Assembly (NCBI GenBank): GCA_944326565.1
Contig: CALVEL010000008.1
Location: forward strand, 2,003-66,002
Direction of reading: 5' to 3'
DNA length: 64,000 bases
DNA from: Candidatus Gastranaerophilales bacterium
GTDB taxonomy: Bacteria; Cyanobacteriota; Vampirovibrionia; Gastranaerophilales; Gastranaerophilaceae
The notes under the pieces were generated by a model that saw nothing but the letters and a program-made list of their open reading frames with translations, had not been told where the DNA came from and made no database searches. The position numbers were made by a program, and so were the translations under genes. Shown one piece after another: positions 8,448 to 56,248 of this stretch (position 1 is its first letter; each line of letters starts with the position of its first letter).

Positions 8448-8566
8448 TTTTCCCTCGCTTTATTATTTTTTATAAACCCTTTTTCAAATCACTACATTGC
8501 TAAATAGGATAAAGTAAAATATTTATATTATAATTTTTAGTAGTCGAAATATTTTAAGGTAATAAA

Positions 8567-10198: not shown

Positions 10199-10236
10199 TG
10201 TTGACAAATTTTAAAAGCATAATTATTATACTTTAC

Positions 10237-10767: not shown

Positions 10768-10853
10768 TTATTGAAAAATTTTAAATAAAGACTTGAAAAA
10801 AATTTTTATTTTATACAAAATATATATGCCCCAAATTAAAAGGATTTTTTACT

Positions 10854-13334: not shown

Positions 13335-13883
13335 ATGAAAAAAGATTATGAACAAATTCTTAGCAGCTATAATGGTGGAGACTTGGATCTTTCTGGCTGC
13401 ACAATCAAACATTTAGAACTGGGAAACATTGAAGGTAGTTTGAACCTTTCAAAATGTGTAATTGACAAATTAACTATCGGCTGGGTAAGCAATGAGTTAA
13501 ATATGTCAGGTGCAGAAATCAAAAATTTTGCAACACCTATTGATGCTGATCGCGTTAATATGGCTGGTACAAAAGTTAAAAAATTACCGGAACATATTTA
13601 TACTGGTTGGTTAAATATGGAAAAATCAAATGTTGAAAAATTAAATACAGATATCAGAACAAATGTATTTAATATTTCAGGAACAAAAATTGAACAATTA
13701 CCTAAAAATTTCCGAGTTCATACATTAGTTGTTGATTCAAAAGTTGCTAAAAACTTATCATTAACAACTTTAAATCAATGTGAAGAATTAATTATTGATG
13801 GCCGCAGATATTTTGAACAAAATGAATCAGGATACAATTTCTGCAGCATGGCATCAGATGTTAAAGAATGCGCTTGTGTGTAG
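13335..13883 (+). CDS. repeat protein (LRR-like ~22-aa units), Cys-rich C-terminus
   Basis: Strong RBS AAGGAGG. Repeated LxLSGCxIKxL / LNMSGAEIKNF / VNMAGTKVKKL / FNISGTKIEQL units. Ends in ECACV. Confidence 0.6.
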   Translation: MKKDYEQILSSYNGGDLDLSGCTIKHLELGNIEGSLNLSKCVIDKLTIGWVSNELNMSGAEIKNFATPIDADRVNMAGTKVKKLPEHIYTGWLNMEKSNVEKLNTDIRTNVFNISGTKIEQLPKNFRVHTLVVDSKVAKNLSLTTLNQCEELIIDGRRYFEQNESGYNFCSMASDVKECACV

Positions 13884-16867: not shown

Positions 16868-18670
16868 TTATTTATTTTTTTCAAAGAATTCACTAATTGT
16901 TCTTTGGATTTGTATTAGGGTATTATTAAAAGTTTCCATATTATTTTCAGCAGTTCTCATTGCTGAAATTAATTGTCTTTTACAGTCTTTCATAATATTT
17001 TTATATTCATTTGTATCAGAAAGTTTAATTTTATTAATTTTTGGAGTTGGTGTAGATTTTATTTTAATAGTTTTTCTAATTTTATTTTGTTTTATTTCAG
17101 ATTTAATTCTGTTGGTTTCTATTGAATAATTTTCATAATAATTTTTAAAACTTTCTATCTCGTTAAAAGCTTTTTGCAAATATTTTTCTATATCTAATCC
17201 TTCTATTTCAATATCATCGTAATATTTTAAAACAGGTGGAAGAGATTGTAAGTATTTAGGATTGTAGTTTTTTACAACTTTATTTGCGTCAATCAAAAAA
17301 TATTTATTTTCTTTTTCACTTAAAAAACCAAGTCTCAAAAGAGGAGCATTGTTTTTATATGATAATTTTATAATAGATATTTTTTCACCATCATCTGTAT
17401 TAAAAACAAAACCTTTTTGTCCAGATTTTACTTCCCATTTAGGATATGATGTTTTCATCTTTGAGAGATTTGGACTTTTTATTATTTTAAATTTGGTATA
17501 TAAATAATCATAAATATTCTTAATGCTATTTAAATTATTAAGAGATTCATCTTTAATATTGCCTATAGCCGGGGTAATGGTTCTTTCATATAATTTTTTA
17601 TTCAAGTAGCTGTTAAAATTATTTAATTTATTTTTGTATAGCTCTAAATAATTTTCTAGCTTTGGCATAATATTGTGTATAGAATCTATGTCATAAAAAT
17701 TTAATTTAGGCGGTATTATGTCAAAATTTTGGACATTGAAATTAGAAACGACTTTATTCTCCTTATTAATTAAAAAGCCATCAGCAATCTTATTGTCAGG
17801 TGTATAAATCATTAGTCTTGTTAAAGTTCCGTGTAATGGATGCTCAAGTTTTTTATATACAATTTGATTTTGCAAATCTCCAATATTAGTTAATATATGT
17901 GAAGACTGTTTTGCTTGTAATTTGTAATCTCCGTAATTGGATCTTAAATTGTTTGAAAGTCTTGAGGGAATATTTTTTAAAAGGTCATCAGTTTGTTTGT
18001 ATAAATAATCTATACTTTTTAAATTTTCTAAATTTTTGTCCTCTAGTTTGAAAATTTCTGGTTTTAAAAATTCAGTACTTATTTTGTTTAAAAACTTTCT
18101 TAAATTAAGCATTGCAATATCTAAATCTGAAAGTGTATTTTCGAGATTTAGTTCAATATTTTTATTTTTTAACTCTTCTTGATTTAAATATTCGTTTTTG
18201 TTTGGAAAAGAATAAGCAATATTTGGGTTTTCATCTTTTAATATTTTGTTGAAATCTGAAATAGCATAAGAATGTAAAAAAATTCTGTTATTTGGATATT
18301 CTTTTCCTTTTTTGACAACTATTTTTATAAAATTTTTTGCCTGTTTGTTTTCAGGAATGTTTATTAAAATTGTATTTTTATCATGTCCGCAATTATGAAA
18401 AACCATAGAACGTTTAAATTCAAAGTCGCAATTCTTTTCTATAAATTCGATTCCTTTATCTGTTTTTTGAGAAAGGATATTAAGAATATCACCATAGGCT
18501 TTTCCTATACTGGCGATATTATCTGCTATTTTATAATTAAGAATACCTGTAGAACCTTTAAAATTTATATTTTTACTAAAATATAAATTTTTATTCTGAA
18601 AATTATAATTAGTATATTTTTTATTATTAAAATTATATGTATTGATAATCATATTTCTAATAAAATACAT
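16868..18670 (-). CDS. large orphan protein (600 aa) with shared leader box
   Basis: N-terminus ...NLYFSKNINFKGSTG, with the rest Asn/Lys-rich and without a recognisable domain. The true start may be the internal MIINTYNF (18652). Confidence 0.6.
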   Translation of the reverse strand: MYFIRNMIINTYNFNNKKYTNYNFQNKNLYFSKNINFKGSTGILNYKIADNIASIGKAYGDILNILSQKTDKGIEFIEKNCDFEFKRSMVFHNCGHDKNTILINIPENKQAKNFIKIVVKKGKEYPNNRIFLHSYAISDFNKILKDENPNIAYSFPNKNEYLNQEELKNKNIELNLENTLSDLDIAMLNLRKFLNKISTEFLKPEIFKLEDKNLENLKSIDYLYKQTDDLLKNIPSRLSNNLRSNYGDYKLQAKQSSHILTNIGDLQNQIVYKKLEHPLHGTLTRLMIYTPDNKIADGFLINKENKVVSNFNVQNFDIIPPKLNFYDIDSIHNIMPKLENYLELYKNKLNNFNSYLNKKLYERTITPAIGNIKDESLNNLNSIKNIYDYLYTKFKIIKSPNLSKMKTSYPKWEVKSGQKGFVFNTDDGEKISIIKLSYKNNAPLLRLGFLSEKENKYFLIDANKVVKNYNPKYLQSLPPVLKYYDDIEIEGLDIEKYLQKAFNEIESFKNYYENYSIETNRIKSEIKQNKIRKTIKIKSTPTPKINKIKLSDTNEYKNIMKDCKRQLISAMRTAENNMETFNNTLIQIQRTISEFFEKNK

Positions 18671-26684: not shown

Positions 26685-28019
26685 TTACTCTTCATAAGTT
26701 CGGAGCTCTTCAAGATAATCTTTTTCAAAATCATTTAAATTGCCTGTTTTTTCTTTTTCAGTTAATGAAACAAGGTCATTTTTTCTTTTTATTTTTAGTT
26801 CATCTAACAAAAGTTGTTCTTTATTGGTAATTATTCCTAATTCTTCTTTACCGCACAAAATTTGGAACATATTTTGTTTGTTGTTGACTAAGTTTGATAT
26901 TTTGTTTTGTCTGATAATCATTTTTGGAGTAAAAGATCTTGGTGTATGTATAAGCTCATAATACAAAACTTCTTTACCTGATATTGAGTTTTTAGGATTT
27001 ATAGATTTTAGGCAGCTTGTTAAAGCTATTTTATACAAGTCATCATAGTTGAAAGCACCTAGTTGTTCATCTGTTTTGCAAATTTTATTTATTTCATTGT
27101 AATCATTATCCGTAAAGTTTTTTTTATTTAAATCTTCTAAAATATTTAATTTTCGAGCCAAACAATCGGGATAATCTTTAATATTTATTAGACTGTCTTT
27201 GCATCTGGTGATATTTTCAATTAATATATTTGCATTTTCATTATCTTGCGGGCGGGGAATTTCGAATTTATCAATTTTACCTTTGCGAAAATCAGGATGT
27301 ATTAAATGTGGGAAGTTTGAAGTAAACAGAAAAGTTGAGCCATATCCACCTGAATTTGGTGGAGAGGCACAATTATCCAATAAACTTTTAAAATATTCTA
27401 TATTATTTACATTATTGGAACTTTTTAAAAATTCAATATCTTTTACACTATAATTAAAATCTGTCAGTCTTTTGGCTTGATTGTAGGTCATACCTAAAAA
27501 ATTTTCTATATTATTTAAGTAAATGATAGACTTTTTGCCGGTTTCATTATAGTAATTTTTTGCTTGTTCTAAAATATCTCTTACCTTTAAAATAAAATTT
27601 TCATTGGTTTCATTAGAAAGATCAAATATTTTATTTCCCGCTGTTTGGTATGCAATTTCACGTGTTGTATTTGCAAAACATTCCACGAGCCTGTTTTCAG
27701 GGCCAAAAAGCATTACACCATTTGGAATGTAAATTGATGTATTTTTAAATGATTCTATAAACGGTTCTGTAAAATGTTTTGCCAGATTATCCTTTTCTTT
27801 TGAAAAGCCTACAATTTTTTTATCAAAATATTGTATTACTTTGTTATATGTTTCTGAGCCTGTAAAATTTATTTGAGGTAAATATTGATTTAAGAGGACA
27901 AATTCATTGTTTTGTGTTAAATGAGACTTAACGTTGCGGTTTTTATTTTCAGAGTTATATGTATATGAAATATTTTTACCTTTTTGTGGATTTTGAAAGT
28001 AAATTGGAGATATTTTCAT
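26685..28019 (-). CDS. leader-bearing AAA+-like protein with degenerate Walker motifs (pseudo-ATPase paralogue of 30484..32475)
   Basis: Aligns by eye with the neighbouring AAA+. IPNGVMLFGPENRLVE aligns with LPNAVVLYGATGVGKTE, IIYLNNIENF with LLIDEAEKY, and FLFTSNFPHLIHPDF with LFITTNYPHLIDQDL. Leader MKISPIYFQN...INFTGS. Confidence 0.65.
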   Translation of the reverse strand: MKISPIYFQNPQKGKNISYTYNSENKNRNVKSHLTQNNEFVLLNQYLPQINFTGSETYNKVIQYFDKKIVGFSKEKDNLAKHFTEPFIESFKNTSIYIPNGVMLFGPENRLVECFANTTREIAYQTAGNKIFDLSNETNENFILKVRDILEQAKNYYNETGKKSIIYLNNIENFLGMTYNQAKRLTDFNYSVKDIEFLKSSNNVNNIEYFKSLLDNCASPPNSGGYGSTFLFTSNFPHLIHPDFRKGKIDKFEIPRPQDNENANILIENITRCKDSLINIKDYPDCLARKLNILEDLNKKNFTDNDYNEINKICKTDEQLGAFNYDDLYKIALTSCLKSINPKNSISGKEVLYYELIHTPRSFTPKMIIRQNKISNLVNNKQNMFQILCGKEELGIITNKEQLLLDELKIKRKNDLVSLTEKEKTGNLNDFEKDYLEELRTYEE

Positions 28020-28042
28020 ATTATCTTTTACCTTGTAGAGAT

Positions 28043-29038
28043 TTAGTTGCTATGAAAAGAATTTTTTAGATTATTTGCATTTAACTTACAAACATCAAAG
28101 AGTTCTTGCACCTTAGGATTTTGAGCGAAAGGTGCATCTTTTTTTCTAATGAGTTCATATTCAAGAGCGCTTATAGAATCAACATCCCATAAGAAATTTT
28201 TACCTTTTTCAAAAGCAATTTTAATCATATTTTCAGAATTAAGCACCCCAGGTTTTTGCAGGATATCAATGAAAGAGAGTCCGTCCCCAGTATCATCAGG
28301 GGTATAAACTGCCAATTTTTCGAATAAATCAAAAACTTTTAAAGAGGTTTTATTATCAGGATAATCAGGGAAAGCTATAGCCAACGAAGAAAGGGTATTC
28401 ATCCCTGTATCATGAGAGAAATCTCTTTTGCCGAATTTCTCAAAAATATTAAGAGCATCATCAAAAGAGGCTTTGTTAAAAGCAGCTCTTTCGAAAAGAG
28501 TATTCCAAAATATTTCTTTATCTTGAGCAGAGGCATTATTAGGGAAAATCATACCATCAACTGCAGAAATATTATTATTCTTAATTTTTTCTAAAATAGG
28601 GTGATAAACATTTTTGAACCAATTATGGTATTGATTTTTTTCTTTTTCCGACATGAGGTTATAGTCTTTGAAAGCATTTAATTGTATTTGACAATCATCA
28701 AATTGTTTTTTTAAAGGGTTGATATTAGAGTTATTATCTTTTACGATATCAGGTTTTATTGGTTTTTCTATAATTGTCTCTATTCCTGTATCTTTCGGGA
28801 TATCAGGTTTTATTGATGATTTTTTGGGTAATCGTCTATTTATTAAAAAGTAAATAATAGTTAATAAAACTGTACTCAGTCCAATACCTATGCCTATTTT
28901 AGCTTTGTTAGAAATGGTGTTTTCTTTTTCAAATTTATCAGATACTGGTTGTTCGGTTTTTGTAGACTGAATCTTTAGGCTTGGCTTAATAGGTTCTGAT
29001 AATTGTATATTTGATATATTATTAATTCCTAAAATCAT
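28043..29038 (-). CDS. TM-anchored orphan protein sharing a ~230-aa C-terminal module with the next gene
   Basis: TM segment IGIGIGLSTVLLTIIYFLI. The C-terminal part is nearly identical to that of 29100..30467. Confidence 0.65.
   Translation of the reverse strand: MILGINNISNIQLSEPIKPSLKIQSTKTEQPVSDKFEKENTISNKAKIGIGIGLSTVLLTIIYFLINRRLPKKSSIKPDIPKDTGIETIIEKPIKPDIVKDNNSNINPLKKQFDDCQIQLNAFKDYNLMSEKEKNQYHNWFKNVYHPILEKIKNNNISAVDGMIFPNNASAQDKEIFWNTLFERAAFNKASFDDALNIFEKFGKRDFSHDTGMNTLSSLAIAFPDYPDNKTSLKVFDLFEKLAVYTPDDTGDGLSFIDILQKPGVLNSENMIKIAFEKGKNFLWDVDSISALEYELIRKKDAPFAQNPKVQELFDVCKLNANNLKNSFHSN
28077..28767. repeat. copy 1 of a ~691-bp near-identical tandem duplication
   Basis: Matches 29134..29824 at a constant offset of 1057 nt. 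I spotted two mismatches while reading parts of both copies, at 28092 (a vs g) and 28132 (t vs c). Confidence 0.9.
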
Positions 29039-29099
29039 TATTATTTAACCTTTATCTTTGTAAAACATATGAATATAAAAAATTGCTATAATGTAAAGA

Positions 29100-37513: not shown

Positions 37514-37519
37514 AGATAT

Positions 37520-38647
37520 TTATCTAAAAGATATGAATTTAGGGATTTCACTGCACATACAATGAATACCACCAAGTCTATCAGAGAGGATATTCATTAT
37601 TCCATTACATGGTTTAAATCCACGAATTTCGCTTAAAAAATTAAACAGTTCATTGTTTTTAACGTTTTTGTATTTTCCTCCTGAAACAAAGTGTATATTA
37701 CTAATGTTTGGAAATTTTTTTATTAAATCTTCCCTAAAAAGTTTTTCTAAATATTCTAATGCTGGAGAGGAATATTTTGTTGAATTTGTTATATAGGAAA
37801 TTTTTCCGTCCTGTTTTTTAAAAGCAATAGCGTTTATAAAGTTAATATCATCAAAATATTTTCCACCAATTTTGATAGGTTTAAAGCCATAATTTTTGAG
37901 TTTTTTTATTATAGTTTCGGTTGATTCAGCCATCGGATTTGATTTTTCAAAATTCAGATTTCTTAATATATTAGTCTTTAATCTGTTGTAAATTTTATCA
38001 TTATTTGGAAATTCTTTTTTCATATTTTCAATATTTTTTAATGATTTTGAATAATCATTCACAAGTATGTATGGATAACCAATCGGTCTTACAATTTCAT
38101 CAAGATCGCAAGAAAATTCATCAATAGTAAAAATATTTTCAGGACTTACATCAAATAAATTGGATAAATGTTTTATAGTAGGTTTATCTCCAAATTTTAT
38201 AAAAGAATCATCTTCATATATTTCAAGACTGTTAATTAACATCCATTTTTTATCATTATCAAAACCTAAGAAATAATTTCCTCCCCTTGGCATATATTTT
38301 TTACTGTTAATTTTATATTCATTAAAAGGAAATATATTTGTTAAAACAGATTCTTTTGCATTCCATAAAATATTTTTACCATCTTTATTTTTTACAAAAG
38401 CTTTATTATCCTGAGCCCAAATGGAAAGTCTGTCATCAATATAAGAATCATCAATAATATTTTTTTCTATTTTTTTATTGTTCTGGTTTAAAAATAAATC
38501 AAGTCCTTCTTCCTTTGTAATAATTTTCATTTCTTTGAAAATTTTTTGCTCTTGAGCATTTGTAAGTCCTTGCATATAAATTCCTTGTAAAGGAATTGCA
38601 TCATATCCTGAAAAGTTTATTTGATTTTTTCTTAAAGTGATGTGCAT
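37520..38647 (-). CDS. leader-bearing guanidino-group-modifying enzyme fold (agmatine/peptidyl-arginine deiminase-like)
   Basis: SIWAQDNKAFV (W.xD..pxfv), PRGGNYFLG (GGN), CDLDEIVRP, and C-terminal LGGIHCMCSEIP (GGxHC catalytic Cys motif). Leader MHITLRKNQINFSGY. Confidence 0.6.
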   Translation of the reverse strand: MHITLRKNQINFSGYDAIPLQGIYMQGLTNAQEQKIFKEMKIITKEEGLDLFLNQNNKKIEKNIIDDSYIDDRLSIWAQDNKAFVKNKDGKNILWNAKESVLTNIFPFNEYKINSKKYMPRGGNYFLGFDNDKKWMLINSLEIYEDDSFIKFGDKPTIKHLSNLFDVSPENIFTIDEFSCDLDEIVRPIGYPYILVNDYSKSLKNIENMKKEFPNNDKIYNRLKTNILRNLNFEKSNPMAESTETIIKKLKNYGFKPIKIGGKYFDDINFINAIAFKKQDGKISYITNSTKYSSPALEYLEKLFREDLIKKFPNISNIHFVSGGKYKNVKNNELFNFLSEIRGFKPCNGIMNILSDRLGGIHCMCSEIPKFISFR

Positions 38648-41720: not shown

Positions 41721-42827
41721 TTAATTGAATAATTTTGAACATTTTTCTTGAATATCTAACGCAATATCTTTTGCAAATTTTTCCTTGAGTCCTATATTTT
41801 TTGCCACAGCTAAAATATCCTCTAAAGTCGGATTTTTACCCTCGCCATTAATTGTTGTTGCGTGTTCTCCATTAAATGAAAAACTATAAGTCAAATCATA
41901 CGCAGGAGACAAGTGCCATTCTTTTTTTGTATCATCAAAAAGAAAAGAAAAATTCTTTGAATGGTCATCTCGATTGTGTGCAAACACATTAAAGCACATC
42001 AGCCTGAATAGTTGTTCAATATCCTGATAATTTCTTGTTAACTCAAGCGTAAGTTTCATCAATGTATTGTAATCAAGGTTAGGAAACCTGTGACTTGTTT
42101 CTAACAGCCCGCTTGCGGATACCATATGAACTTTTTTACCATTTTTGCGGTCAAACCTTTTTATCCCAAAATATCCTGAACATATTTTTGATGGGAAAAG
42201 TCTTGTCTCTGTCATATATATTCCGCAACTTTTTGCACATAGGGAATATTGATATTCTTTTTCTCCTATATTTTTAGGATCAGATGATGACGGGAACTTA
42301 ATAATCCAATCCTCGTTGTCAATAGACGTTAAAATTTTGGGTCTTGCACCACCAGATGAGCCTCCTAAGATAAAAAGTTCATCCAAATTATCTGAATTTT
42401 GCGATTCTAATATCTTTGAACACTCCTGAGCAAGAATATCATAATCCGCAATGTTATTTTTAGATTCAAACCTATGTTCAGGTTTATAAGTTAAAGCCCC
42501 CATACCACTTTCTTGAACAACAGCAAGTCTATTGAGGTTATCTATTTCATTAGGGTTAATTTTATTTTTCAAAAATAACCTGTCAACAAGTAATCTCCCC
42601 CAACCGTCAGGCAAACTGTCGTTAAAAACTCCAAATAAACCGCCAAATGGGTCATATTTCGGAATAAAAACTTTCTTGATAAGCGGCAAACTAAAAGGTG
42701 AAATGCTAAATCCGTTATTCAACCAATCTGAATCGTATTCAAAAGCAACAACTCTATCAGGAGTTTTAGCTAAAGTGCCAACTAAAATATCATTATAAAA
42801 AACTTTTAAATATTTATAGTTATCCAT
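41721..42827 (-). CDS. hipA: HipA-family serine/threonine kinase toxin
   Basis: HipA N-domain (LKVFYNDILVGTL...FEYDSDWL..GFSISPFSLPL), LGGSSGGARPK loop, and DDHSKNFSFL catalytic region. Confidence 0.85.
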   Translation of the reverse strand: MDNYKYLKVFYNDILVGTLAKTPDRVVAFEYDSDWLNNGFSISPFSLPLIKKVFIPKYDPFGGLFGVFNDSLPDGWGRLLVDRLFLKNKINPNEIDNLNRLAVVQESGMGALTYKPEHRFESKNNIADYDILAQECSKILESQNSDNLDELFILGGSSGGARPKILTSIDNEDWIIKFPSSSDPKNIGEKEYQYSLCAKSCGIYMTETRLFPSKICSGYFGIKRFDRKNGKKVHMVSASGLLETSHRFPNLDYNTLMKLTLELTRNYQDIEQLFRLMCFNVFAHNRDDHSKNFSFLFDDTKKEWHLSPAYDLTYSFSFNGEHATTINGEGKNPTLEDILAVAKNIGLKEKFAKDIALDIQEKCSKLFN

Positions 42828-43098
42828 TTATAACCTCATCAATGGAGTTGTAGTCTTTTTGTGTGAATAAATTTTCCAAATCCTGCTCTAAATTAAGAGC
42901 AATTAGGATTTTTATAAAAGAATTCAAAGAAATTTCATACTTGGACTCAAACCTTTTAATGGAGCCAAGACTAACACCTGATTTAGAAGCAAGTTGAGCC
43001 TGAGAAATTTTAAGCTTTTTTCGGCGTTGCTTAATTTTTTCAACCAAGTCATGCGCTATATCATTAGGGGTTTTGGGATTAAAGAAAAAATTATCCAT
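42820..43098 (-). CDS. hipB: HipB-like XRE-family antitoxin
   Basis: HTH ISQAQLASKSGVSLGSIKRFE. Its stop overlaps the hipA start by 8 nt. Confidence 0.75.
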   Translation of the reverse strand: MDNFFFNPKTPNDIAHDLVEKIKQRRKKLKISQAQLASKSGVSLGSIKRFESKYEISLNSFIKILIALNLEQDLENLFTQKDYNSIDEVING

Positions 43099-43396: not shown

Positions 43397-43936
43397 ATGA
43401 ATGTAGTACAACCTATAAAAAAGCTGGAAGATATTCAAAAGATTAAAAAATATTTGGTAAAAAAGACAAGAGATGCACTGCTTTTTAGTTTCGGTATAAA
43501 TACGGGACTCAGAATATCTGATATATTATCGCTTGATATTGGGGATGTAAAAGGCAGAGATTATATTGAAATTAGAGAGAAAAAGACAAATAAGTATAAG
43601 AAATTTCCGCTTAATAGGTTTTTAAAAGAGGAGATTAATTTATTTGTAGAGGGTTTGGCGAGTGAGCAACCGCTTTTTTATACACAAAAACATTGCAGGC
43701 TTGATAGAGCACAGGCGTATAGAATTTTGAATAAGGCAGCACAAGCTGTTGGGGTGAAGGAAAGAATCGGAACACATACACTGAGAAAGACATTCGGGTA
43801 TCATCATTATAAAAAATATAATGATATAGTACTCCTGCAAAAAATCTTTAACCACTCCTCACCATCAGTAACGCTTCGCTACATCGGCATCGAACAAGAC
43901 ACAATCGATGAAAGCTACATGAATTTTTATCTGTAG
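43397..43936 (+). CDS. small tyrosine recombinase (catalytic domain only, 179 aa)
   Basis: All catalytic residues are readable: GLRISD (Arg), KTNKYKKF (Lys), GTHTLRKT (HxxR), NHSSP (His), LRYIG (Tyr). The size resembles FimB/FimE-type invertases rather than phage integrases. Confidence 0.85.
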   Translation: MNVVQPIKKLEDIQKIKKYLVKKTRDALLFSFGINTGLRISDILSLDIGDVKGRDYIEIREKKTNKYKKFPLNRFLKEEINLFVEGLASEQPLFYTQKHCRLDRAQAYRILNKAAQAVGVKERIGTHTLRKTFGYHHYKKYNDIVLLQKIFNHSSPSVTLRYIGIEQDTIDESYMNFYL

Positions 43937-43969: not shown

Positions 43970-44380
43970 TTATTTATAGCTTCCGATTTTTCTGCCGTAT
44001 TTGTCGTATTCGGTAATTCTACCAGATGAGTCTTTTTTGAATGAACCTACTTTTTGACCGTATTTATTGTATTTTGTAGTTACCCCATTAGAATTTGTTT
44101 TGTAACTACCAGTTTTCTGTCCATACTTATCATAGGAATTATATCCAGAGGAAGTCTTTTTATAACTTCCAGTTTTTTGACCGTACTTGTCATATTTATT
44201 ATAGCCAGAGGAAGTTTCCTTGTATGTGCCAGTTTTAGAACCATATCTGTCATAAGAATTGTAGCCTGAAGTTGTTTGCCTGTAAGAACCTGTCTTTTGA
44301 CCATACCTATCATAGGAAGTAACTGCAAAAGCAACATTTGCAAAGAATAACATCAACAATAAAACTAAAAATTTCTTCAT
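43970..44380 (-). CDS. secreted tandem-repeat protein (six ~20-aa YDKYGQKTGSYK units)
   Basis: Start at MKKFLVLLLMLFFANVAFA (44380) with an AAAGGAG RBS. Repeats are SYDRYGQKTGSYRQTTSGYN / SYDRYGSKTGTYKETSSGYN / KYDKYGQKTGSYKKTSSGYN, and so on. Confidence 0.7.
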   Translation of the reverse strand: MKKFLVLLLMLFFANVAFAVTSYDRYGQKTGSYRQTTSGYNSYDRYGSKTGTYKETSSGYNKYDKYGQKTGSYKKTSSGYNSYDKYGQKTGSYKTNSNGVTTKYNKYGQKVGSFKKDSSGRITEYDKYGRKIGSYK

Positions 44381-44431
44381 ACACAACTCCTTTATAATCA
44401 TAACGAAATAAGGCTGAAAATTGTTCAAATA

Positions 44432-44760: not shown

Positions 44761-45381
44761 ATGGTTAAACGAGATGTTTGTAATTCTGTTTCTAAAGAAT
44801 ATAGTGCTAGGATGACTGGAAATCAATTTCTTTATCCAGAGTTTAAGGTTGCAGTTAAATTACTACAAGAAGGCTTAAGCAAAAAAGAAGCAACCGATAA
44901 AATTATTAATGAGAATTTATTTGAATATCGTTCTTTTAAGGCTATAAACAAACATATTGGTGCTGTATGGGAAAGAGCAAACTATTTAGATGACTATTTG
45001 ATTGAAGTGCTATTAACTGAACCTAATGAAATAGGAAGACTTATTAATTTTTATGCAATTTTAAAATATGACAGATTATTTCTTGAATTTATGGAAGAAG
45101 TCTTAATAGATAAAGTGTTTTCAAGACAAATGGAAGTTTCTAAATCTGATATATCCAACTATTTTTCGATTAAAGCAGAACAGAGTGAAACTGTGGCTAA
45201 CTTTAAAGAAACAACATTAAAAAGGCTTAGATTAGCGTATTTTGAGATTCTAAGTGGAGCTGGATATATAGGAACAAATAGAGATAATGCAGAATTAACA
45301 ATCCCTCTTGGTATATACCAGATTACTAATCATTTAGAAGAAATTGGTGATAAAAGGTATGCAAAAGCAATGTTAGGATAA
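44761..45381 (+). CDS. brxA: BREX protein BrxA (DUF1819)
   Basis: YSARMTGNQFLYPEFKVAVKLLQEGLSKKEATDKIINENLFEYRS fits the recalled DUF1819 pattern. It is the first gene of the six-gene BREX order. Confidence 0.85.
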   Translation: MVKRDVCNSVSKEYSARMTGNQFLYPEFKVAVKLLQEGLSKKEATDKIINENLFEYRSFKAINKHIGAVWERANYLDDYLIEVLLTEPNEIGRLINFYAILKYDRLFLEFMEEVLIDKVFSRQMEVSKSDISNYFSIKAEQSETVANFKETTLKRLRLAYFEILSGAGYIGTNRDNAELTIPLGIYQITNHLEEIGDKRYAKAMLG

Positions 45382-45384
45382 GTA

Positions 45385-45984
45385 ATGGAACTTAGAGCAA
45401 GACTGGATAAAATTAAAGCAATAATTGAACAGGATTCTTTTTTCAATCAACAATCGTTGGGTGGAGAGTTAAATTTTCATATCTTTGATTATGAACCTTC
45501 AGATGAACTAATTGTAAGAAGATATATCAAGGATTTTGTAAGCAGTTATTCTTATGCCAATTCAAAGATTAAACCTATAGAATTTGATTTATTTGAGATG
45601 TTATTAAAAATCCTAACTGATAAAACTGCTGGTAGTAAAACTTATCTTGATTTAGCAATAGAAACTGAAGAAAGACAAGGAACAGAAAGTCTTATTAATA
45701 CTCTTAGAGGGGTTATTAATATAGAAGAATTTGTAAATATGATAAAAAAAGAGCTAGGAGATAGTAATCTTGTTATTTTATCTGGTGTAGGAAAGGTGTA
45801 TCCTTTGGTAAGGTCGCATAATGTCTTAAATAATCTTCATGCAGTTTTAGATAAGATTCCAGTTATTATGTTCTATCCTGGTACATACGACCAAAAAGAA
45901 TTAAGGCTATTTAAAGGTTCAAACTTTGATGGCTTAAAAGATGATAATTATTACAGAGCATTTAGGCTTGTTGCAAATGAGTAA
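45385..45984 (+). CDS. brxB: BREX protein BrxB (DUF1788)
   Basis: 199 aa with FHIFDYEPSDELIVRRYI, as recalled for DUF1788. Lies between brxA and brxC with a 3-nt gap. Confidence 0.85.
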   Translation: MELRARLDKIKAIIEQDSFFNQQSLGGELNFHIFDYEPSDELIVRRYIKDFVSSYSYANSKIKPIEFDLFEMLLKILTDKTAGSKTYLDLAIETEERQGTESLINTLRGVINIEEFVNMIKKELGDSNLVILSGVGKVYPLVRSHNVLNNLHAVLDKIPVIMFYPGTYDQKELRLFKGSNFDGLKDDNYYRAFRLVANE

Positions 45985-45994
45985 AGGTGTAGTT

Positions 45995-48900
45995 ATGAAG
46001 CTAAGAGAATTATTTGAGAAAGATATTAATAGGAACATTAATGGTGTTGTTAAAGTTGAGCAAGTTGATGACGAAGCTATTATTTATCAAGAATTGGACG
46101 AATTTGTCGTTACAAAAGAACTTTCTAAGCATTTTAGCACTTTTTATAGTAATTATAAAAACTCATTTGAAGAAAGAACTGATAAAATCGGAGTATGGAT
46201 TTCTGGTTTCTTTGGTTCTGGTAAATCTCATTTTTTAAAGATGCTATCATATCTACTTGCCAACAAAGAAGTAAAAGGTAAAAAAACAATAGAATTCTTT
46301 GAAGGGAAATCTAATATAGATGATTGGACTTTTGCTGATATGAAATTAGCTACATCTGTTCCTACAGAAACTATTTTGTTCAACATTGATTCTAAAAGTT
46401 CAAAAGATACAAAACAAAGAAAAGATGGCATTGTTGAAGTCTTTTTAAAGGTCTTTAACGAATCTCAGGGTTACTCTGCAAACTACCCTAAACTTGCAGA
46501 TATTGAAAGATATCTTGATAAAAATGGAAAATACGAAGAATTTAAACAAATTATAACCTCAGAAAGTGGTGTATCTTGGGAAGAAGCATCTAATGCAGTT
46601 GGTTTCTTTAAAGACTTCTTTATAAAGGCTTATGTTCAAGTTACAGGGACAACAGAACAAAGTACACAAGACTTATTTAAAGATGTTGTTGAAGATTCAG
46701 GGATTACACCAGAAGGGTTTGCAAAGCTAATAAAAGAATATCTTGAAAGTAAAGGTAGTAAGAATCGAATTATTTTCTTGGTCGATGAAATTGGGCAATT
46801 TATAAGCGATAATACAAACCTTATGCTTAGTTTACAGACAGTTGTTGAAAACTTGGGTACTACGTGTAATGGAAGAGCTTGGGTAATGGTAACATCTCAA
46901 GAAGCAATAGATTCTATAACAAAAGAACGTTTCAGGGACCAAGATTTCTCAAAAATCCAAGGCAGATTTGATACAAAATTAAGTTTATCTGGTTCAAACA
47001 CTGATGAAGTTATCAAACGAAGATTATTAGAAAAGAAACCAGATGCAAGAACTCTTCTTTCTAATTATTACAACGAACAAGAAAAGATTTTGGCAAATCT
47101 AATCACCTTTTCCAGTCAAACTTCCGGCATGAAAATGTATGAAAATTCGGGCGATTTTGTTGATTGTTATCCATTTGTCCCATATCAATTCAAGTTGTTA
47201 CAAAGTGTGTTTACAGAGTTAAGAAACTTTTCTCATGCCGGGGCTCACTTAGCTTCAGGGGAGCGTTCTATGCTTAATGCATTCCACACAGCGTTAAAAG
47301 AGTATGGGGACAAAGAGATTACAGAATTAGTTCCATTCAATGTTTTTTATTCTACGATTCAAACCTTTATAGATACAGATATTGTCAGAATAATTGCACA
47401 AGCAAAAGAGGGTAATCCAGATATAGAAGATTTTGATATTGAAGTCTTAACTGTTTTATTCTTGATTAAATACATTAAAGAAGTTCCTTGTGATGTAGAA
47501 AATATTGCAACATTAATGATATCAAATATTAATGAAAGCAAAAATGCACTAAAATCCAAAATAGAAGGAGCTTTAACAAGATTAAAACAAGCTACATTAA
47601 TACAACAAAATGGAGAAGAATATTCATTCTTAACAAACGAAGAACAAGATGTTACAAGAGGTATAAAAAACACTCAGATTGATTCTAGCGATGTGTTAAA
47701 TGAAGTCTATAGAAATATATATGAAGAAATTTATACTAAAAAGTCAATAACTCCATATCCTCAAGGACAGTCTTATTATTTTGTAAGAAAAGTTGATGAT
47801 GTAGTAAGAGGAAGCCAAGCAGAAGATATAGAAGTTAAATTTATCACTTCTATGAACTCTGATTATAAATTCAGCGAATCTGAGCTAAAAATGAAGTTTC
47901 TTGCAGGAAATACATTATTTATCAAATTGAATGAAAACGGTTACCTACAAGAACTTGAAACTATCTTAAAAACAGATAAGTATATCAAGCAAAAAAGCAG
48001 TGTAAAACAGTCTGAAATGCAGGATATGATATTAAAAAACAGAGGTGCTGAATTAATAGAACGCAAGAAAAGGGTGAAAACTTTATTAGAACAAGCTATT
48101 CTTGAATCTACTTTCTACACAAACGGTCAGATTATGGAAGTTAGTGCAACAAGTGCTGCTGCAAAGATTGAAAATGCTTTGAAACAAATTGTAGAAAATA
48201 CATATACGAACCTTCATTTTATCCAAGAAAGAGTTAGGGATGAAAAAGAAATCCATGCAAAACTCATTGCTCCTCAAGGTAAATTGGATGAAAGAAACAA
48301 AAAAGCTCTTGATGATGTTTTAGCATTTATTCAACTAAATAACTCGATGAGTTGCACTGTTACAATGCAGGGATTAAAACAACAATATACAAGAAAACCT
48401 TTTGGTTGGTCTATAAATGATATTGCAGGTGTTGTAGCAGATTTAGCTGTTAAAGGAGACATTTCTATTCTCTATAATGGTGTTCAATGCAATTATCAGG
48501 ATTATAATACAGTAAAATATTTGACAAATGACAGAGAAATTCAAAGCACTGTAATCAAATTGAAAGAAAAAATAGATAGTGCAAAAATCCAGCAAGTAAT
48601 AGCAATAGCACAAGAACTATTTGAAAAACAAGACTTTGTAGATGATGGAGAAAAACTTGCAAATTCAATAAGAGAAAATCTTCAAAATATGATTGGAGAT
48701 TTACAAGAGCTTAATGGAAGACATAATAACCCCAAATATCCTAAAAAGACTGTTATTGAACTTGGTCTTTCTACATTAAAAGAGCTTAAGAATGAGCCAG
48801 ATGTAAACGGATTATTTGATTTATTGATAAAGCAAAAGGATAATTTATTAACTTGGAAACAAGAATATAAACTCCTAAAATCATTCTTTAATACTCAAGT

Positions 48901-49561
48901 TGGTATTTTTGATGAATCATTGAAAATATATGACAGAGTAAAAAGAAATGAAGTTTATTTAACAACTTTTGAATCAGAAGAGGTTGCTAAATTAAATGAA
49001 CTAATTTCTAAACTTGAATCGATAATAGATTCTCCTGAACCATATTCTATGATTAAAGCTCTTCCTGTCTTAAATTCGGATATAACTTCTATTGTTAATA
49101 ATGTATTAGAAGATTATAAACAGGCATTAGGAGAAGTTATAAGTGATTTAGCTCATTATTTAGCAGAAGAAGCATCCAAACAGGGGCTTGAATGTGAAAG
49201 ATATAGCAACTTATTCAAGATTAATGTTACTGATTTGTATGAAAGAGCAACTGATTTTGGAGTGTTAAAGGCTATTGAAGAAAAAGCAAAATTATATTAT
49301 GAAAAACTTTTGAAACAAATTTCAGAAGATAGCATTGCGAAAAAGAATTTAGAATTACAACAACTAACAGGTACAGAAGAACATCCAGACTCTGAACCAA
49401 TGATTCAGAAAGAATTAGTATTCGTAAATCCTACAAATGTTGTTCAGAGTATGCAAATTCTTGAAACGGAAGAAGATGTTGATAACTATATCAACAAACT
49501 ATCAGAAGAGTTGAAAAACAGAATCAGGAACAATAAACGTATTAAACTCCAAGGGGGCTAG
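45995..49561 (+). CDS. brxC: BREX P-loop ATPase BrxC
   Basis: N-terminus MKLRELFEKDINRNINGVVKVEQVDD...ELDEFVVTKEL and P-loop GFFGSGKSHFLKML. About 1190 aa. ATG at 45995 has an AAAGGTG RBS. Confidence 0.9.
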   Translation: MKLRELFEKDINRNINGVVKVEQVDDEAIIYQELDEFVVTKELSKHFSTFYSNYKNSFEERTDKIGVWISGFFGSGKSHFLKMLSYLLANKEVKGKKTIEFFEGKSNIDDWTFADMKLATSVPTETILFNIDSKSSKDTKQRKDGIVEVFLKVFNESQGYSANYPKLADIERYLDKNGKYEEFKQIITSESGVSWEEASNAVGFFKDFFIKAYVQVTGTTEQSTQDLFKDVVEDSGITPEGFAKLIKEYLESKGSKNRIIFLVDEIGQFISDNTNLMLSLQTVVENLGTTCNGRAWVMVTSQEAIDSITKERFRDQDFSKIQGRFDTKLSLSGSNTDEVIKRRLLEKKPDARTLLSNYYNEQEKILANLITFSSQTSGMKMYENSGDFVDCYPFVPYQFKLLQSVFTELRNFSHAGAHLASGERSMLNAFHTALKEYGDKEITELVPFNVFYSTIQTFIDTDIVRIIAQAKEGNPDIEDFDIEVLTVLFLIKYIKEVPCDVENIATLMISNINESKNALKSKIEGALTRLKQATLIQQNGEEYSFLTNEEQDVTRGIKNTQIDSSDVLNEVYRNIYEEIYTKKSITPYPQGQSYYFVRKVDDVVRGSQAEDIEVKFITSMNSDYKFSESELKMKFLAGNTLFIKLNENGYLQELETILKTDKYIKQKSSVKQSEMQDMILKNRGAELIERKKRVKTLLEQAILESTFYTNGQIMEVSATSAAAKIENALKQIVENTYTNLHFIQERVRDEKEIHAKLIAPQGKLDERNKKALDDVLAFIQLNNSMSCTVTMQGLKQQYTRKPFGWSINDIAGVVADLAVKGDISILYNGVQCNYQDYNTVKYLTNDREIQSTVIKLKEKIDSAKIQQVIAIAQELFEKQDFVDDGEKLANSIRENLQNMIGDLQELNGRHNNPKYPKKTVIELGLSTLKELKNEPDVNGLFDLLIKQKDNLLTWKQEYKLLKSFFNTQVGIFDESLKIYDRVKRNEVYLTTFESEEVAKLNELISKLESIIDSPEPYSMIKALPVLNSDITSIVNNVLEDYKQALGEVISDLAHYLAEEASKQGLECERYSNLFKINVTDLYERATDFGVLKAIEEKAKLYYEKLLKQISEDSIAKKNLELQQLTGTEEHPDSEPMIQKELVFVNPTNVVQSMQILETEEDVDNYINKLSEELKNRIRNNKRIKLQGG

Positions 49562-49649
49562 GGGTAAATGGTGTAAATAGGAGTAACCATTATAGAATAA
49601 ACTTAATCCCTAAAATATTGGAACTTTTCAAACTATAAAGGAAGTATTG

Positions 49650-52600
49650 ATGACAGAACTATTAGAAAAAGAAATAACATTGGATAAATCAGCACTAAAA
49701 GACTTTGCAATAAAAGCAAGAAGAAAACTTAAAGAAAGAGTTGAGCTTCAAGCAAAACTGATGGGATTTTATGAAGATAATAGAGCTGTCAATTATGAGT
49801 TTGAAGACGACAGACAAGTGAAAATAAATGGAGAGTTCTTTAGCAAAAAACAAGTTGAGACCTTACAAAGAGAAATTAAGTCAAAAGGTTATGAAAACTT
49901 GATTGATGAAGTTGCATATACTTGGTTCAACAGATTCATCGCTCTATATTATATGGAAGTCAATGGATATAGCGAAAATAATTTTAATATTATTTCAAAT
50001 ATCGATAACCTTAACCAATTTGCAGTATCTGTTTCATCACAATTGAATGATGAAGAAAAACAAACTGTTATATCAGCTGTTCAAAATAATAATCAGGATG
50101 TAATTTTTAAGACATTGCTAATTCATCAATGTAATGTGATGAACAAAAAACTTCCATTCTTGTTTGAGCAAATCCAAGACTATACAGAATTATTATTCCC
50201 TCAAGGGATGAATAGTGCTGATTCTGTAATAAAAGAAATGCTATCTCTTGATAAATCCAACTGGCAAGTTGTAGAAATTATCGGCTGGCTTTATCAGTAT
50301 TATATTTCAGAAGCAAAAGAAATACTTGATTATGAATTAAAAAATAAAAAAAATCGTAAAGTGCAAAAAGATGATATGCCAGCTAAAACTCAAATATTTA
50401 CTCCTAAATGGATAGTAAAATATATGGTTGAAAACTCAGTTGGTAAAATGTGGCTTGAAGCTCGTCCTAATAAAGAATTACAGTCTAAATTTAAGTACTA
50501 TTTGGAATCAGCTGATCAAGAAGATGATGTTAAAGAAAAACTAAAAGAAATTATAAATAAAAACATCTCTCCAGAGGATATAAAAGTTCTTGACCCTGCT
50601 TGTGGTTCTGGGCATATTTTGGTAACAGCTTTTGAAGTTTTATACCAAATATACAAATCTGCTGGATATATGAAAGATGAGATTGCTAAATTGATTCTGA
50701 CAAAAAATTTATATGGACTTGATATTTGTAATAGAGCTTCTCAATTAGCTCAACTTGCTTTAATTATGAAAGCTAGAGAATATGACAAAGATATTTCATC
50801 TAAGGTAGTTGAATTAAATATAACTTCTATTCAAGATACCAATTGGTTTGATTCAAGAGTAAAAGAATGCCTAATGAATGGTGTAACTAACCAATTACTT
50901 GCACAATCACAAATAGATTTATTGCAAAAAACATTCAAAGACGCTAAAGAATACGGTTCAATTCTTGATGTAAAAGATTTTGATTTCAATTTTTGGGAAG
51001 AAAGATTATATGCTGTGCAAACTCTAAATATGGGACTTTTATATTCTGATATTACAGAACAATTAAGAGACAAATTACCTCAATTAATCAAACAAGCTCG
51101 TATCATGCAACAAAAATATGAATGCGTTATTACAAATCCTCCGTATTTAGGTAGTAAATTCTTTGATGCAAAATTAACAGAATTCATGACAAAAAAATAT
51201 CCTAATTCAAAATCGGATACGTGTGTAGCATTTATAGAAAAGGCTTTGCAAATGACAGCTAAAAATTCATATTGTGCTCTAGTTGTTATGCAATCATGGA
51301 TGTTTTTATCATCATTTGAAAAGTTTAGAGAACACTTATTAAATAATTCGACAATTCAAACAATGACACATATGGGTAATAACGTCATGAAAATAGCTTT
51401 TGGCACATGTGCAACAGTATGGCAAAAAGCTGTAATGCCAAAATATAAAGCTGTATATTCATGGGTAGAAAACGATGATATTACTGAAAAAGATATTCCA
51501 TATACATTCCCTATTAAAGATAATGGGCGATATAACATAGTTGCTCAAAATGGATTCCACTCAATACCTGGGTCGCCGATTGCATACTGGGCTAGCGATA
51601 GAGTTAGAGAGATATTTAGAAATAACAAGCCTTTAAATGAATTTGTTGAAGCTTTTCAAGGAATTATAACAGGTGATAATAATTATTTTTTAAGATTATG
51701 GTATGAACTTGAAAATAATAAGATTTCATTTAATAAACAAAAAATGGAAGAAGTTAATATATCTGAACAATATTGGATTCCTTATAACAAAGGAGGCGAA
51801 TTTAGGAAATATTATGGTAATCAAGATTATGTCATAAATTGGAAAGATGAAGGTGATGGACTTGTTAGAAGCCGAAACAAATCTTCTGAATATTATTTGC
51901 AAGAATATGTTTCTTGGACATATATTACATCTACAACTCCCACAACAAGATATTATCCCAAAGGTTTTTTATGGGATGTAGCTGGTTCTGGTTTCTTTGA
52001 TAAAAATAAAAATAACAAGAATTTGTATTATTTACAAAGCTTATTGGGTTCAAACGTAGGAAGATATATTATTTATTTAATTAATCCAACAATAAATTTT
52101 CAAGTCGAAAATATATTATTATTTCCAACGAAATTTCCGAATAAAGAAATTCAAGATAAAATTAATTCATTAGTTGCAGAAAACATTCAAATATCAAAAG
52201 ACGATTGGGATAGTTTTGAAACATCTTGGGATTTTGAACAACATCCTTTGTTGAGATTCTCTAATAGAAATAAAGGTCTTGTTGACTACAAAAATATTCA
52301 TAAAGTTGAACCTATTACAGCAGGAGATAAAGTTCAAGATTGTTTCAATAAATGGAAGGAATACAAACAAGAACAATTCAACAAACTAAAAGCTAATGAA
52401 GAAGAATTGAACAGATTGTTTATTGAAATTTATGGACTTCAAGATGAAATGACTCCAGAGGTCGATGATAAAGATATTACAGTCGCTTTAGCAGATGAAT
52501 TAAGGGATATAAAATCACTTCTATCTTATGCTATTGGCTGTATGTTTGGCAGATATTCTCTTGATGAAAAAGGTTTAATATTTGCTGGTGGAGAGTTTGA

Positions 52601-53207: not shown

Positions 53208-53213
53208 AGATTT

Positions 53214-53714: not shown

Positions 53715-53725
53715 GTAAATAGATA

Positions 53726-56236: not shown

Positions 56237-56248
56237 GGCAGGTGAAAA

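Follow-up and report, generated by a model that had tools for sequence, protein, structure and literature searches.

A two-box N-terminal leader on diverse proteins of the gut bacterial order Gastranaerophilales, and its possible role as a non-Sec targeting tag

Described systems in which a peptide signal is carried by several different proteins vary in the form of that signal. Signals of the type III secretion system (T3SS) are not known to be sequence motifs; the RxLR and PEXEL motifs come after a Sec signal peptide, MIX takes the form of a folded region, and the ESPR of autotransporters, which begins MNKIYK, is known only ahead of a canonical Sec signal. The protease Prp cuts MLKLNLQFF|A off ribosomal protein L27 and off capsid or scaffold proteins of phages, this extension having a fixed length of 9 residues and a handful of substrates. 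Cargo peptides of microcompartments and encapsulins are amphipathic helices or C-terminal GSL-type motifs. Early flagellar (rod/hook) subunits carry a small hydrophobic signal at the N-terminus and, further downstream, a gate-recognition motif, FxxxPhi, that docks on FlhB-C; in Salmonella, the two must be separated by at least 19-24 residues (PMC8983047). Here, we describe an N-terminal leader with two short boxes that is common to 13 open reading frames (ORFs) of varied product in a 64,000-nucleotide stretch of Candidatus Gastranaerophilales DNA (contig CALVEL010000008.1, positions 2,003 to 66,002), referred to below as the window.

Gastranaerophilales are uncultured gut bacteria that form a non-photosynthetic sister lineage of the cyanobacteria, and to our knowledge almost nothing is known of how they interact with their surroundings. 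A preprint reports that they are enriched in sub-Saharan African relative to industrialised populations. The reading of the leader tentatively favoured here, with a confidence that falls a little short of even, is that it may be a targeting tag, independent of Sec and peculiar to this lineage, that a single envelope-associated machine reads for all tagged proteins.

A bipartite leader encoded at the protein level

In the 13 window ORFs, box 1 of the leader has the form M-[K/R/N]-[I/V]-x-x-[I/V]-[N/S] and box 2 the form [I/V/L]-[S/N]-F-[K/T/S]-G. A preliminary description of the window, made from the DNA letters, had proposed that a shared, modular, non-Sec N-terminal leader is attached to diverse proteins; every ORF it named is present at the coordinates given and with the N-terminus it quoted, and both the enrichment of the leader and its retention in orthologues establish that it is real and conserved. 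Leader anatomy was tabulated over 47 leaders. Box 1 has K, R, or N as its second residue in 39 leaders and I or V as its third in 46; the sixth is I or V in 32, with N or S at positions 7 and 8 in most. Box 2 begins with I, V, L, or P and continues with S or N; its aromatic residue is F in 43 leaders and Y in the others, the residue between F and G is mostly K, T, S, or R, and the last residue is G in 37 and otherwise A or S. The residue directly before box 2 is usually N, Q, K, or D. The spacer between the boxes spans 2-48 residues (2-10 in about half of the leaders), and long spacers often hold a third element, D-x-F. Relative to the bodies of the proteins, leaders are enriched 2.4-fold in N and 2-fold in both S and Q, are depleted 4-5-fold in D/E, and are poor in L and A. 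The spacer is polar (Asn/Ser/Gln/Lys-rich), basic, and acid-poor, and the net charge of the leader is positive.

The boxes occur far more often than composition predicts. A strict version of box 2, [ILV][NSY][FY].G within residues 9-70, is found in 7 of 61 window ORFs and in none of 221 internal 62-aa windows. A larger set comprised 266 ORFs from 13 non-redundant Gastranaerophilales loci and was compared with 200 residue shuffles that kept composition. Box 1 alone was matched by 34 of the 266 ORFs (2.6 in shuffles) and box 2 alone by 38 (4.2 in shuffles), whereas both boxes together were matched by 18, against 0.035 in shuffles (maximum 1 in the 200 shuffles); orthologues in this set are not independent counts. 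Both boxes were absent from all 768 windows anchored on an internal Met. The F-x-G box is, then, in excess over composition. These counts bear directly on the proposal that the leader has no common function, in which an AT-rich genome favours Lys, Ile, and Asn codons after the ATG, while F-x-G reflects family-specific conservation or shared N-terminal ancestry. The G+C content of the window is ~28%, MK starts are frequent in it, chance matches to box 1 occur in a few ordinary enzymes (such as 5672-6244), and two cargo pairs are paralogous. However, neither the frequency of double hits relative to shuffles nor their absence at internal Met residues fits this proposal; moreover, in 67 sequences the conservation of F and G equals that of catalytic residues, and the cargos form 11 unrelated groups. 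An absence of common function is therefore extremely improbable and already close to refuted.

Orthologues provide a second line of evidence. Copies of window genes that are identical or nearly so occur on gut-metagenome contigs and in one NCBI metagenome-assembled genome (MAG), and homologous loci are found in GTDB species representatives titled Candidatus Gastranaerophilales, Candidatus Melainabacteria, or Candidatus Stercorousia (individual related loci are cited below by L numbers). Across orthologues of a 444-aa leader protein (28-40% identity), M1, I6, and F52 are invariant, as are M1 and F18 in six orthologues of a 350-aa leader protein. A deiminase-like family of 375-aa proteins has 85 homologues, and nearly all full-length members start M[KNRI][IV]x(3-10)N[IVL][SNT]FKGYD. 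In an alignment of 67 full-length members (A4), G14 is invariant and the conservation of F12 is 90% or higher, comparable to that of H362 and C363, neither of which varies. Purifying selection on the leader is shown by these alignments. The leader, specific to the order Gastranaerophilales, is a genuine short linear motif in two parts.

The similarity lies in the protein and not in the DNA. Leader genes share no common upstream DNA, and the same leader residues are encoded by differing codons, which places the similarity at the protein level; a shared promoter or 5' DNA cassette was rejected because upstream DNA is not shared. A DNA pattern of the MKI...[IV]xFKG[ST] type had no match in the window because spacers and residues are too variable. 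Among 120 matches listed for this pattern in viral contigs, 15 were in frame and none was a leader-like ORF, so that these matches give no evidence of the leader in phages, and chance matches swamp patterns of this type. A 24-position hidden Markov model (HMM) of the leader gave no match at E <=0.001 against 1.84 billion proteins, the profile being too short for power and the result therefore without bearing on where the leader occurs.

Mis-assigned start codons, which the preliminary description had raised as a concern, were rejected as an explanation for at least 9 of the 13 ORFs, where no other possible start lies between the preceding in-frame stop and the ATG. Lengths in public gene calls agree for the proteins of 444, 331, 455, 663, 280, 350, 269, and 375 aa. 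The concern stands for two starts, which are ambiguous: public calls for 35579-37513 use an ATG 14 codons upstream (658 aa), and 16868-18670 has a further ATG 6 codons upstream of MIINTY.

Leader-bearing ORFs are not confined to conserved clusters. A rough count over bystander genes puts the tagged share at ~5-8% of genes in related loci, almost all of these being orphans restricted to the lineage. Beyond the two conserved clusters described below, a hand tally finds leader ORFs at ~1 in 15 bystander genes of these loci, all of them orphans that lack a Pfam match; the full two-box leader never occurs on housekeeping genes there. One example is a 121-aa protein without a Pfam match (L139, 804-1169, minus strand) with the leader MKLNFSSY...QTSFGS. 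Its C-terminus (…KRGSHAVVPL) resembles HicA toxin by eye and, if the resemblance is real, would make it a leader-tagged RNase toxin.

AlphaFold2 models cover two members, a 444-aa pseudo-AAA+ protein and the 375-aa deiminase-like protein. Residues 1-53 of the former have pLDDT <50 and the fold begins at about residue 55, whereas the latter has an overall pLDDT of 91.6 with residues 1-10 disordered (pLDDT <50). The residues after F-x-G form a helix in one model and strands in the other. Given this disorder and the differing folds that follow it, the leader is a disordered extension that is not part of a common domain. In both predicted structures, box 2 ends where the fold begins, directly next to the first folded residue.

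The leader differs from established N-terminal signals. Across the 13 members, the highest 10-residue Kyte-Doolittle mean over residues 1-35 ranges from -0.5 to 1.0, compared with 2.9-3.6 in six genuine signal peptides from the same window, which argues against a Sec signal. Regular-expression searches of the 13 leaders found no Tat motif (S/T-R-R-x-F-L-K), no lipobox (L-x-x-C), and no type IV prepilin site (G|F-T-L-x-E). Genuine prepilins (MKKGFTLAEL...) are present in related loci. The pattern for a double-glycine (C39/PCAT) leader matched 1 of 13, which does not support assignment to that class; once G is aligned to -1, the residue before it is K, T, S, or R in 36 of the 47 leaders and a second G in just 2. 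Searches of curated Pfam and NCBIfam models for other signals (T9SS CTD, PEP-CTERM, LPXTG, YSIRK, KxYKxGKxW, ESPR, and others) gave no match at E values up to 0.1-10, consistent with the earlier remark that the leader was not recognised as any described signal. Ordinary Sec signal peptides occur in this organism, and lipoproteins and prepilins are encoded in related loci, so that the unusual N-terminus is not a general property of its proteome. Full-text literature searches on Gastranaerophilales and Melainabacteria found no description of the motif. Thus, the motif, its bipartite architecture, and its lineage are without description in the libraries and literature searched, while the logic of a short motif on diverse cargos is already known.

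Cargo proteins and their gene neighbourhoods

With leaders trimmed, the 13 cargos fall into 11 groups that lack BLAST similarity to each other, and only two cargo pairs are related. The earlier statement that the cargos are mutually unrelated was therefore too strong, since it overlooked a pair of AAA+ paralogues and a recent duplication. The first pair comprises the 444-aa protein (26685-28019, minus strand) and a 663-aa protein (30484-32475, minus strand). The latter is an AAA+ ATPase with an intact Walker A motif (GATGVGKT; Pfam AAA, E 2.3e-10); its leader covers residues 1-42 (32350-32475; MKVQTISN...KVSFTG), and leader-bearing orthologues are present in L007-L014. The 444-aa protein, whose leader covers residues 1-54 (27858-28019; MKISPIYF...QINFTG), is a paralogue of the AAA+ domain of the 663-aa protein (29% identity). 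Its AlphaFold2 model resembles Vps4/spastin/p97 in Foldseek searches, which places it in the classic AAA+ clade by fold, just as the Pfam match and GATGVGKT place the 663-aa protein there by sequence. No GxxxxGK[ST] motif occurs in the 444-aa protein, and the absence of Walker A marks it as a pseudo-ATPase.

The second pair arose by recent tandem duplication. A 721-nt stretch at 28056-28776 is repeated at 29113-29833 with 98.8% identity, so that the same C-terminal domain is carried by a 331-aa protein anchored by a transmembrane (TM) helix (28043-29038, minus strand) and by a soluble 455-aa protein (29100-30467, minus strand). Both genes are also present in other assemblies of the same species. 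The leader of the 331-aa protein covers residues 1-38 (28925-29038; MILGINNI...SDKFEK) and is followed by a predicted TM helix at residues 48-66; orthologues in L008, L009, and L012-L014, some of just 101-117 aa, retain a DTFEKE box and the TM helix. The 455-aa protein has a short leader, residues 1-17 (30417-30467), MNVSKINYTNKNIFFSA, and its orthologues, with N-termini of the form MYITKID...FFAA, FLAK, or FSAR, sit in syntenic clusters. Its sole family match, Peptidase_M2 at E 0.0013, is weak and below the cut-off.

Three further genes complete this group. A 280-aa zincin-like protein (32527-33369, minus strand; leader residues 1-18, 33316-33369, MKINNYCHSQNKKIYYTG) has an invariant HEFxHxxH motif, with H160, E161, H164, and H167 unchanged throughout its family (alignment A5); the HExxH motif reported earlier is real and belongs to this protein. 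A 350-aa protein (33521-34573, plus strand) has a minimal leader, residues 1-20 (33521-33580), MRISPVTINYKVPRTINFKG, and is also encoded on 23 contigs. Neither the 280-aa nor the 350-aa family has a Pfam or Protein Data Bank (PDB) sequence match. A 269-aa protein (34577-35386, minus strand), syntenic in all clusters, is a weak member with box 1 only (MKVQLITQ); the N-termini of its orthologues are poorly conserved, and upstream GTG/TTG starts are possible.

Together, these seven genes (26685-35386) occur in the same order in at least 8 species of the order, and every member has a leader. This conservation does not fit the loose set of effectors first proposed for the region, since seven of the ten genes clustered there form an order-wide syntenic cluster. 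Such retention is closer to what a functional module would show than to a collection of effectors. One contig with the full cluster (L009, CAYWSX010000016.1) is titled 'uncultured Muribaculaceae bacterium', and the corresponding MAG is probably mis-binned or mislabelled.

The synteny of tagged genes raises a different explanation for the leader, namely that it could act inside the cell as a docking or assembly tag. As a short linear motif, it would bind by strand addition to a cytoplasmic or membrane-proximal hub, with nothing exported. The hub could be the N-domains of an AAA+/pseudo-AAA+ ring or a tetratricopeptide repeat (TPR) protein, and tagged enzymes and TM-anchored members would co-assemble into a lineage-specific membrane-associated complex. 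Such a tag would account for its presence on every gene of the seven-gene cluster across at least 8 species and for the pairing of an active AAA+ protein with a paralogous pseudo-AAA+ protein. It would make sense of small proteins consisting of leader and TM helix, as membrane anchors, and of ATP-dependent cargos, which must function in the cytoplasm. In the AlphaFold2 models, a disordered leader runs directly up to the fold, which is how a tether might look. Nevertheless, we know of no bacterial precedent for ~5-8% of genes, many of them outside the cluster and of unrelated function, docking on one hub, and this breadth counts against docking. Furthermore, the spacer varies from 2 to 48 residues, linkage of leader genes to a peptidoglycan hydrolase gene and a TolC-like gene points to the envelope, and no untagged hub candidate is co-conserved in the cluster. 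Docking is therefore a serious alternative, though on balance an unlikely one.

The same cluster has also suggested that the leader might be a cleavable pro-peptide or degron, with F-x-G as the processing site, cut before or after the Gly. The leader would keep proteins inactive, or mark them for an AAA+-dependent protease, until its removal, and the clustered AAA+ and HExxH proteins would form a split FtsH-like processing machine. Genes for two AAA+ proteins and for the protein with the invariant HExxH do lie together. Box 2 lies exactly at the boundary between disorder and fold in both AlphaFold2 models, and its near-invariant aromatic residue, invariant small residue, and hydrophobic residue two positions upstream resemble a protease subsite pattern; Prp, as described above, offers a precedent. 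Against cleavage, any of K, T, S, R, and A can stand between F and G, and such variation is unusual at a P1 site. In the deiminase-like model, Y15 and D16 after the G lie within the fold and F12 has intermediate confidence, so that the box may pack on the domain, and subunits of the machine would themselves carry the degron. On this evidence, a pro-peptide or degron is quite improbable.

Two more leader genes lie directly beyond the seven. A 644-aa protein with C-terminal TPR repeats (35579-37513, plus strand; Pfam TPR_2) has a leader of residues 1-59 (35579-35755; MKISSVNW...QLSFLG). The deiminase-like 375-aa protein (37520-38647, minus strand) has a leader of residues 1-14 (38606-38647), MHITLRKNQINFSG. 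Its predicted structure matches PAD2/PAD4 and agmatine deiminases in Foldseek at E 1e-8, which identifies a pentein fold of the arginine/agmatine deiminase type, and the catalytic H362 and C363 are invariant. The mammalian protein-arginine deiminases PAD2 and PAD4 rank ahead of bacterial agmatine deiminases in this structural comparison. The deiminase-like family, which comprises 85 clusters, has no Pfam model and no PDB sequence match.

The remaining members are spread over the first third of the window. A 386-aa leader + TM protein (3201-4361, plus strand) has leader residues 1-18 (3201-3254), MKIYNKYPGLNYRVYFSG, and a TM helix at residues 39-57. Its C-terminal domain is possibly kinase-like, based on a PDB sequence match to CK2-alpha at E 0.45; it has no Pfam match. 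A 455-aa protein (11613-12980, minus strand) has leader residues 1-19 (12924-12980; MKVSAVKN...SFCFRN), a TM helix at residues 42-60, and a PHP-like motif, DLHSHSNYSDG, with sub-threshold matches to Pfam PHP (E 0.13) and to a PDB PHP-family entry (E 0.21). The domain calls made earlier thus hold for AAA+, TPR, and the deiminase/pentein fold, whereas the PHP and kinase-like assignments remain by-eye motifs with E values of 0.13-0.45. A protein of 594 aa (or 600 aa) encoded at 16868-18652 (minus strand) has leader residues 1-33 (18554-18652; MIINTYNF...NINFKG) and no significant Pfam match. The shortest member is a 61-aa mini-protein (8262-8447, minus strand; leader residues 1-26, 8370-8447) that lies directly upstream of a TolC-like OEP gene (6908-8227). 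TM prediction agrees with the earlier view of it as leader plus TM helix only, and also with the count of four members in which a single TM helix follows the leader (those starting at 3201, 8262, 11613, and 28043). Orthologues of the mini-protein, 66-79 aa in length, occur in L140, L141, and L142 and have both boxes (MKIYPV...TNFKGN).

A second conserved neighbourhood includes the mini leader + TM protein (61-79 aa), a Sec-exported protein, a peptidoglycan hydrolase, and the leader + TM protein with the PHP-like motif. In the window it spans 8262-12980, with the Sec-signal protein at 10198-10767, and it recurs in L140, L141, L142, and L143. A 410-417-aa leader protein belongs to this neighbourhood elsewhere and is absent from the window. 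The hydrolase is a 252-aa protein with a Glucosaminidase domain (10854-11612, plus strand; Pfam PF01832, E 1.5e-10) whose gene always adjoins leader genes (in the window and L140-L143); orthologues of 11613-12980 adjoin the glucosaminidase gene in L140, L142, and L143. The hydrolase family has a box-1-like start, M[HKR][IL][PT]xI, with no F-x-G box and no canonical N-terminal Sec signal. Also close to this neighbourhood in four genomes is a highly conserved 182-aa repeat protein with a weak toastrack/DUF4097 match (13335-13883, plus strand, in the window; 16080-16628 in L140; 13932-14480 in L142; 7042-7593 in L143).

The hydrolase and the TM proteins are the basis for proposing that box 1 is an ESPR-like extension that would modulate Sec/SRP insertion, for the four TM proteins and the hydrolase only, with soluble members sharing the motif for another reason. 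In 4 of the 13 members, a TM helix does follow 20-45 residues past the start, and the glucosaminidase family combines box 1 with a basic stretch and a conserved KKIIPxTMIVAES...SGHA|Q segment; the MNKIYK start of autotransporter ESPRs is a further parallel. However, 9 of the 13 lack any hydrophobic segment, no family of signal-peptide or ESPR type came up in Pfam scans of the members, and most members would be left unexplained. An ESPR-like role is accordingly a very remote prospect.

Genes flanking the seven-gene cluster include known defence functions. In several genomes the cluster adjoins GmrSD, SIR2-like/DUF4917, SNF2, and methyltransferase genes, and BREX and HipBA are encoded in the window. 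The leader cluster may lie within a hotspot for defence islands, or it may be a defence module that has gone unrecognised. Comparison of the seven-gene cluster with known defence models in PADLOC gave weak P-loop matches only and assigned it to no known system, and a PHROGs scan gave nothing convincing. Flanks in L008, L010, L011, and L014 encode an SNF2 helicase, a DUF4917/SIR2-like protein, two GmrSD genes, an Eco57I-type methylase, a ParB-methylase, a PAPS reductase, and DUF5131. In the window, a HipA-like kinase toxin (41721-42827) and its HTH partner (42820-43098) are followed by a short tyrosine-recombinase ORF (43397-43936) and by a small Sec-signal protein of tandem repeats, SYDRYGQKTGSY(K/R) (43970-44428, minus strand). 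A complete type 1 BREX system occupies 44761-58297 on the plus strand (BrxA, BrxB, BrxC/PglY, PglX, a 166-aa ORF at 53214-53714, PglZ, and BrxL), and a helicase-like protein resembling MkoA/MkoC lies downstream of it (59966-62548, minus strand). By coordinate mapping, the public contig closest to the window (BRZ_MC NODE_16) seems to stop at about 60.4 kb of the window; there is no record of the final ORF (62616-63863).

A possible non-Sec targeting tag

The strict N-terminal position of the leader, its two invariant boxes, disorder, modularity, lineage-specific cargos, and frequency of several percent are features to be expected in a sorting or targeting signal, and a secretion or sorting function is plausible on these sequence features. 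The targeting role of the leader itself is what we infer from them. Its disordered, N/S/Q-rich, acid-poor, and positively charged composition is typical of signals that are recognised unfolded, though not specific to them, and a prevalence of ~1 in 15 bystander genes is of the order of magnitude expected of a sorting signal. Under the proposed mechanism, one shared receptor would read the leader in an extended conformation on the cytoplasmic side and would bring tagged proteins to an export or assembly site associated with the cell envelope. The AAA+, pseudo-AAA+, HExxH, and TM proteins of the cluster would be accessory machinery or co-targeted clients and not classical effectors. An envelope destination is suggested by the four TM members, by the leader + TM mini-proteins, and by linkage to the peptidoglycan hydrolase and TolC-like genes.

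The leading candidate for the reader, in its own right a rather unlikely one, is a relic (orphan) flagellar type III export apparatus, the only candidate machine on record for the order. Complete flagella are found in ~25% of Gastranaerophilales, and the rest keep flhB, fliI, flgG, and other flagellar genes, for which a role in secretion has been postulated (bioRxiv 10.64898/2026.04.24.720558; Soo 2014, PMC4040986). Precedents exist elsewhere: the relic flagellar T3SS of non-flagellated Lysobacter is reported to be apparently functional and functionally diverged (PMC7688988), and the Campylobacter flagellar secretome is reported to include non-flagellar proteins secreted through the flagellar T3SS (PMC5223770). 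A stronger version would make the leader the export signal of a flagellum-derived type III pathway in these gut bacteria, most of which are non-motile, with ~100 lineage-specific secreted proteins delivered into or onto host, protist, or bacterial cells. This version is improbable. If it were true, the cargo would include enzymes with eukaryotic closest structural matches (a PAD-like deiminase, a Vps4/spastin-like AAA+ protein, and possibly a kinase), and the pathway would be an independent exaptation of the flagellar export apparatus in which the signal is, unusually, a recognisable sequence motif.

Several observations weigh against a targeting tag read by an envelope-associated machine, and some of them bear on the flagellar reader in particular. 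No export machinery, secretion, or flagellar gene was found near leader genes in ~300 kb of related loci, eight further neighbourhoods among them. Both the 663-aa AAA+ protein with its intact Walker A and, possibly, the kinase-like protein need ATP; ATP-dependent proteins make poor extracellular or periplasmic cargo and argue against simple secretion to the outside. The leader + TM mini-proteins are hard to see as cargo, and synteny of a seven-gene cluster throughout the order is seen more often with subunits or members of a pathway than with substrates. Box 2 has the form F-x-G in place of FxxxPhi, with a residue at +4 that is polar by inspection, and half of the leaders have spacers of 2-10 residues compared with the 19-24 minimum in Salmonella early subunits. 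A resemblance to flagellin N-termini (MRINHN..., MKVNTN...) was rejected, since hhalign gave a probability of 0.4% for the leader alignment (A2) against flagellin N-termini (A8). Finally, box 2 is missing from the peptidoglycan hydrolase family, which has a box-1-like start and may rely on a weak Sec-like segment further in that ends SGHA|Q. The ATP-dependent cargos, the mini-proteins, and the cluster synteny fit a docking tag without export equally well.

A tag that can be recognised by sequence on an estimated 5-8% of genes would yield a computable catalogue of functionally linked proteins and, through phylogenetic profiling, a handle on the cognate machine. It would also put directly to the test the published idea that the relic flagellar genes make up a device for secretion. 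Should the tag prove to be an export signal, it would be among the few motif-defined non-Sec signals and could be used for reporter design; should it be an assembly tag, it would point to a large AAA+-driven complex at the membrane.

Comparison with known systems

Among described systems, the signal of early flagellar subunits offers several parallels. Like it, the leader has hydrophobic residues at its extreme N-terminus (I/V at positions 3 and 6), a polar disordered spacer, and a Phe-centred downstream motif, would require no cleavage, and lacks an h-region; moreover, the order that carries the leader keeps orphan flagellar export genes. The differences are that box 2 is F-x-G and not FxxxPhi, that spacers can be as short as 2-10 residues, and that the cargos are enzymes and TM proteins, not axial subunits. 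T3SS effector signals resemble the leader in being N-terminal, disordered, Ser/Asn-rich, and acid-poor, a non-specific likeness, and in serving diverse enzymatic cargos. Unlike them, the leader has two near-invariant boxes, its genes are not linked to chaperone or export genes, and its carriers include strongly hydrophobic TM members and leader + TM mini-proteins.

The closest parallels in organisation are the MIX motif of the type VI secretion system (T6SS), oomycete RxLR, and Plasmodium PEXEL, where a short N-terminal motif likewise precedes polymorphic, unrelated C-terminal domains within one lineage. The leader has no sequence resemblance to these motifs and is also found on machinery-like proteins (AAA+ proteins and TM anchors). 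ESPR shares with it a conserved M-N/K-K/I-I-Y-type start ahead of a later hydrophobic segment, as in the four TM members and the hydrolase, whereas 9 of the 13 leader members lack a Sec signal and Pfam scans found no ESPR-type family. The extension removed by Prp is likewise short, occurs on unrelated proteins, and has an aromatic residue followed by a small residue at the mature start; in contrast, the leader is 14-59 residues long and is carried by dozens of proteins, and no Prp-like protease was identified. Microcompartment and encapsulin peptides resemble the leader as short terminal peptides with flexible linkers on several unrelated enzymes of one operon. Here, no shell protein was found among the Pfam-annotated genes of related loci, and the TM-anchored members of the leader set do not fit a system of this kind.

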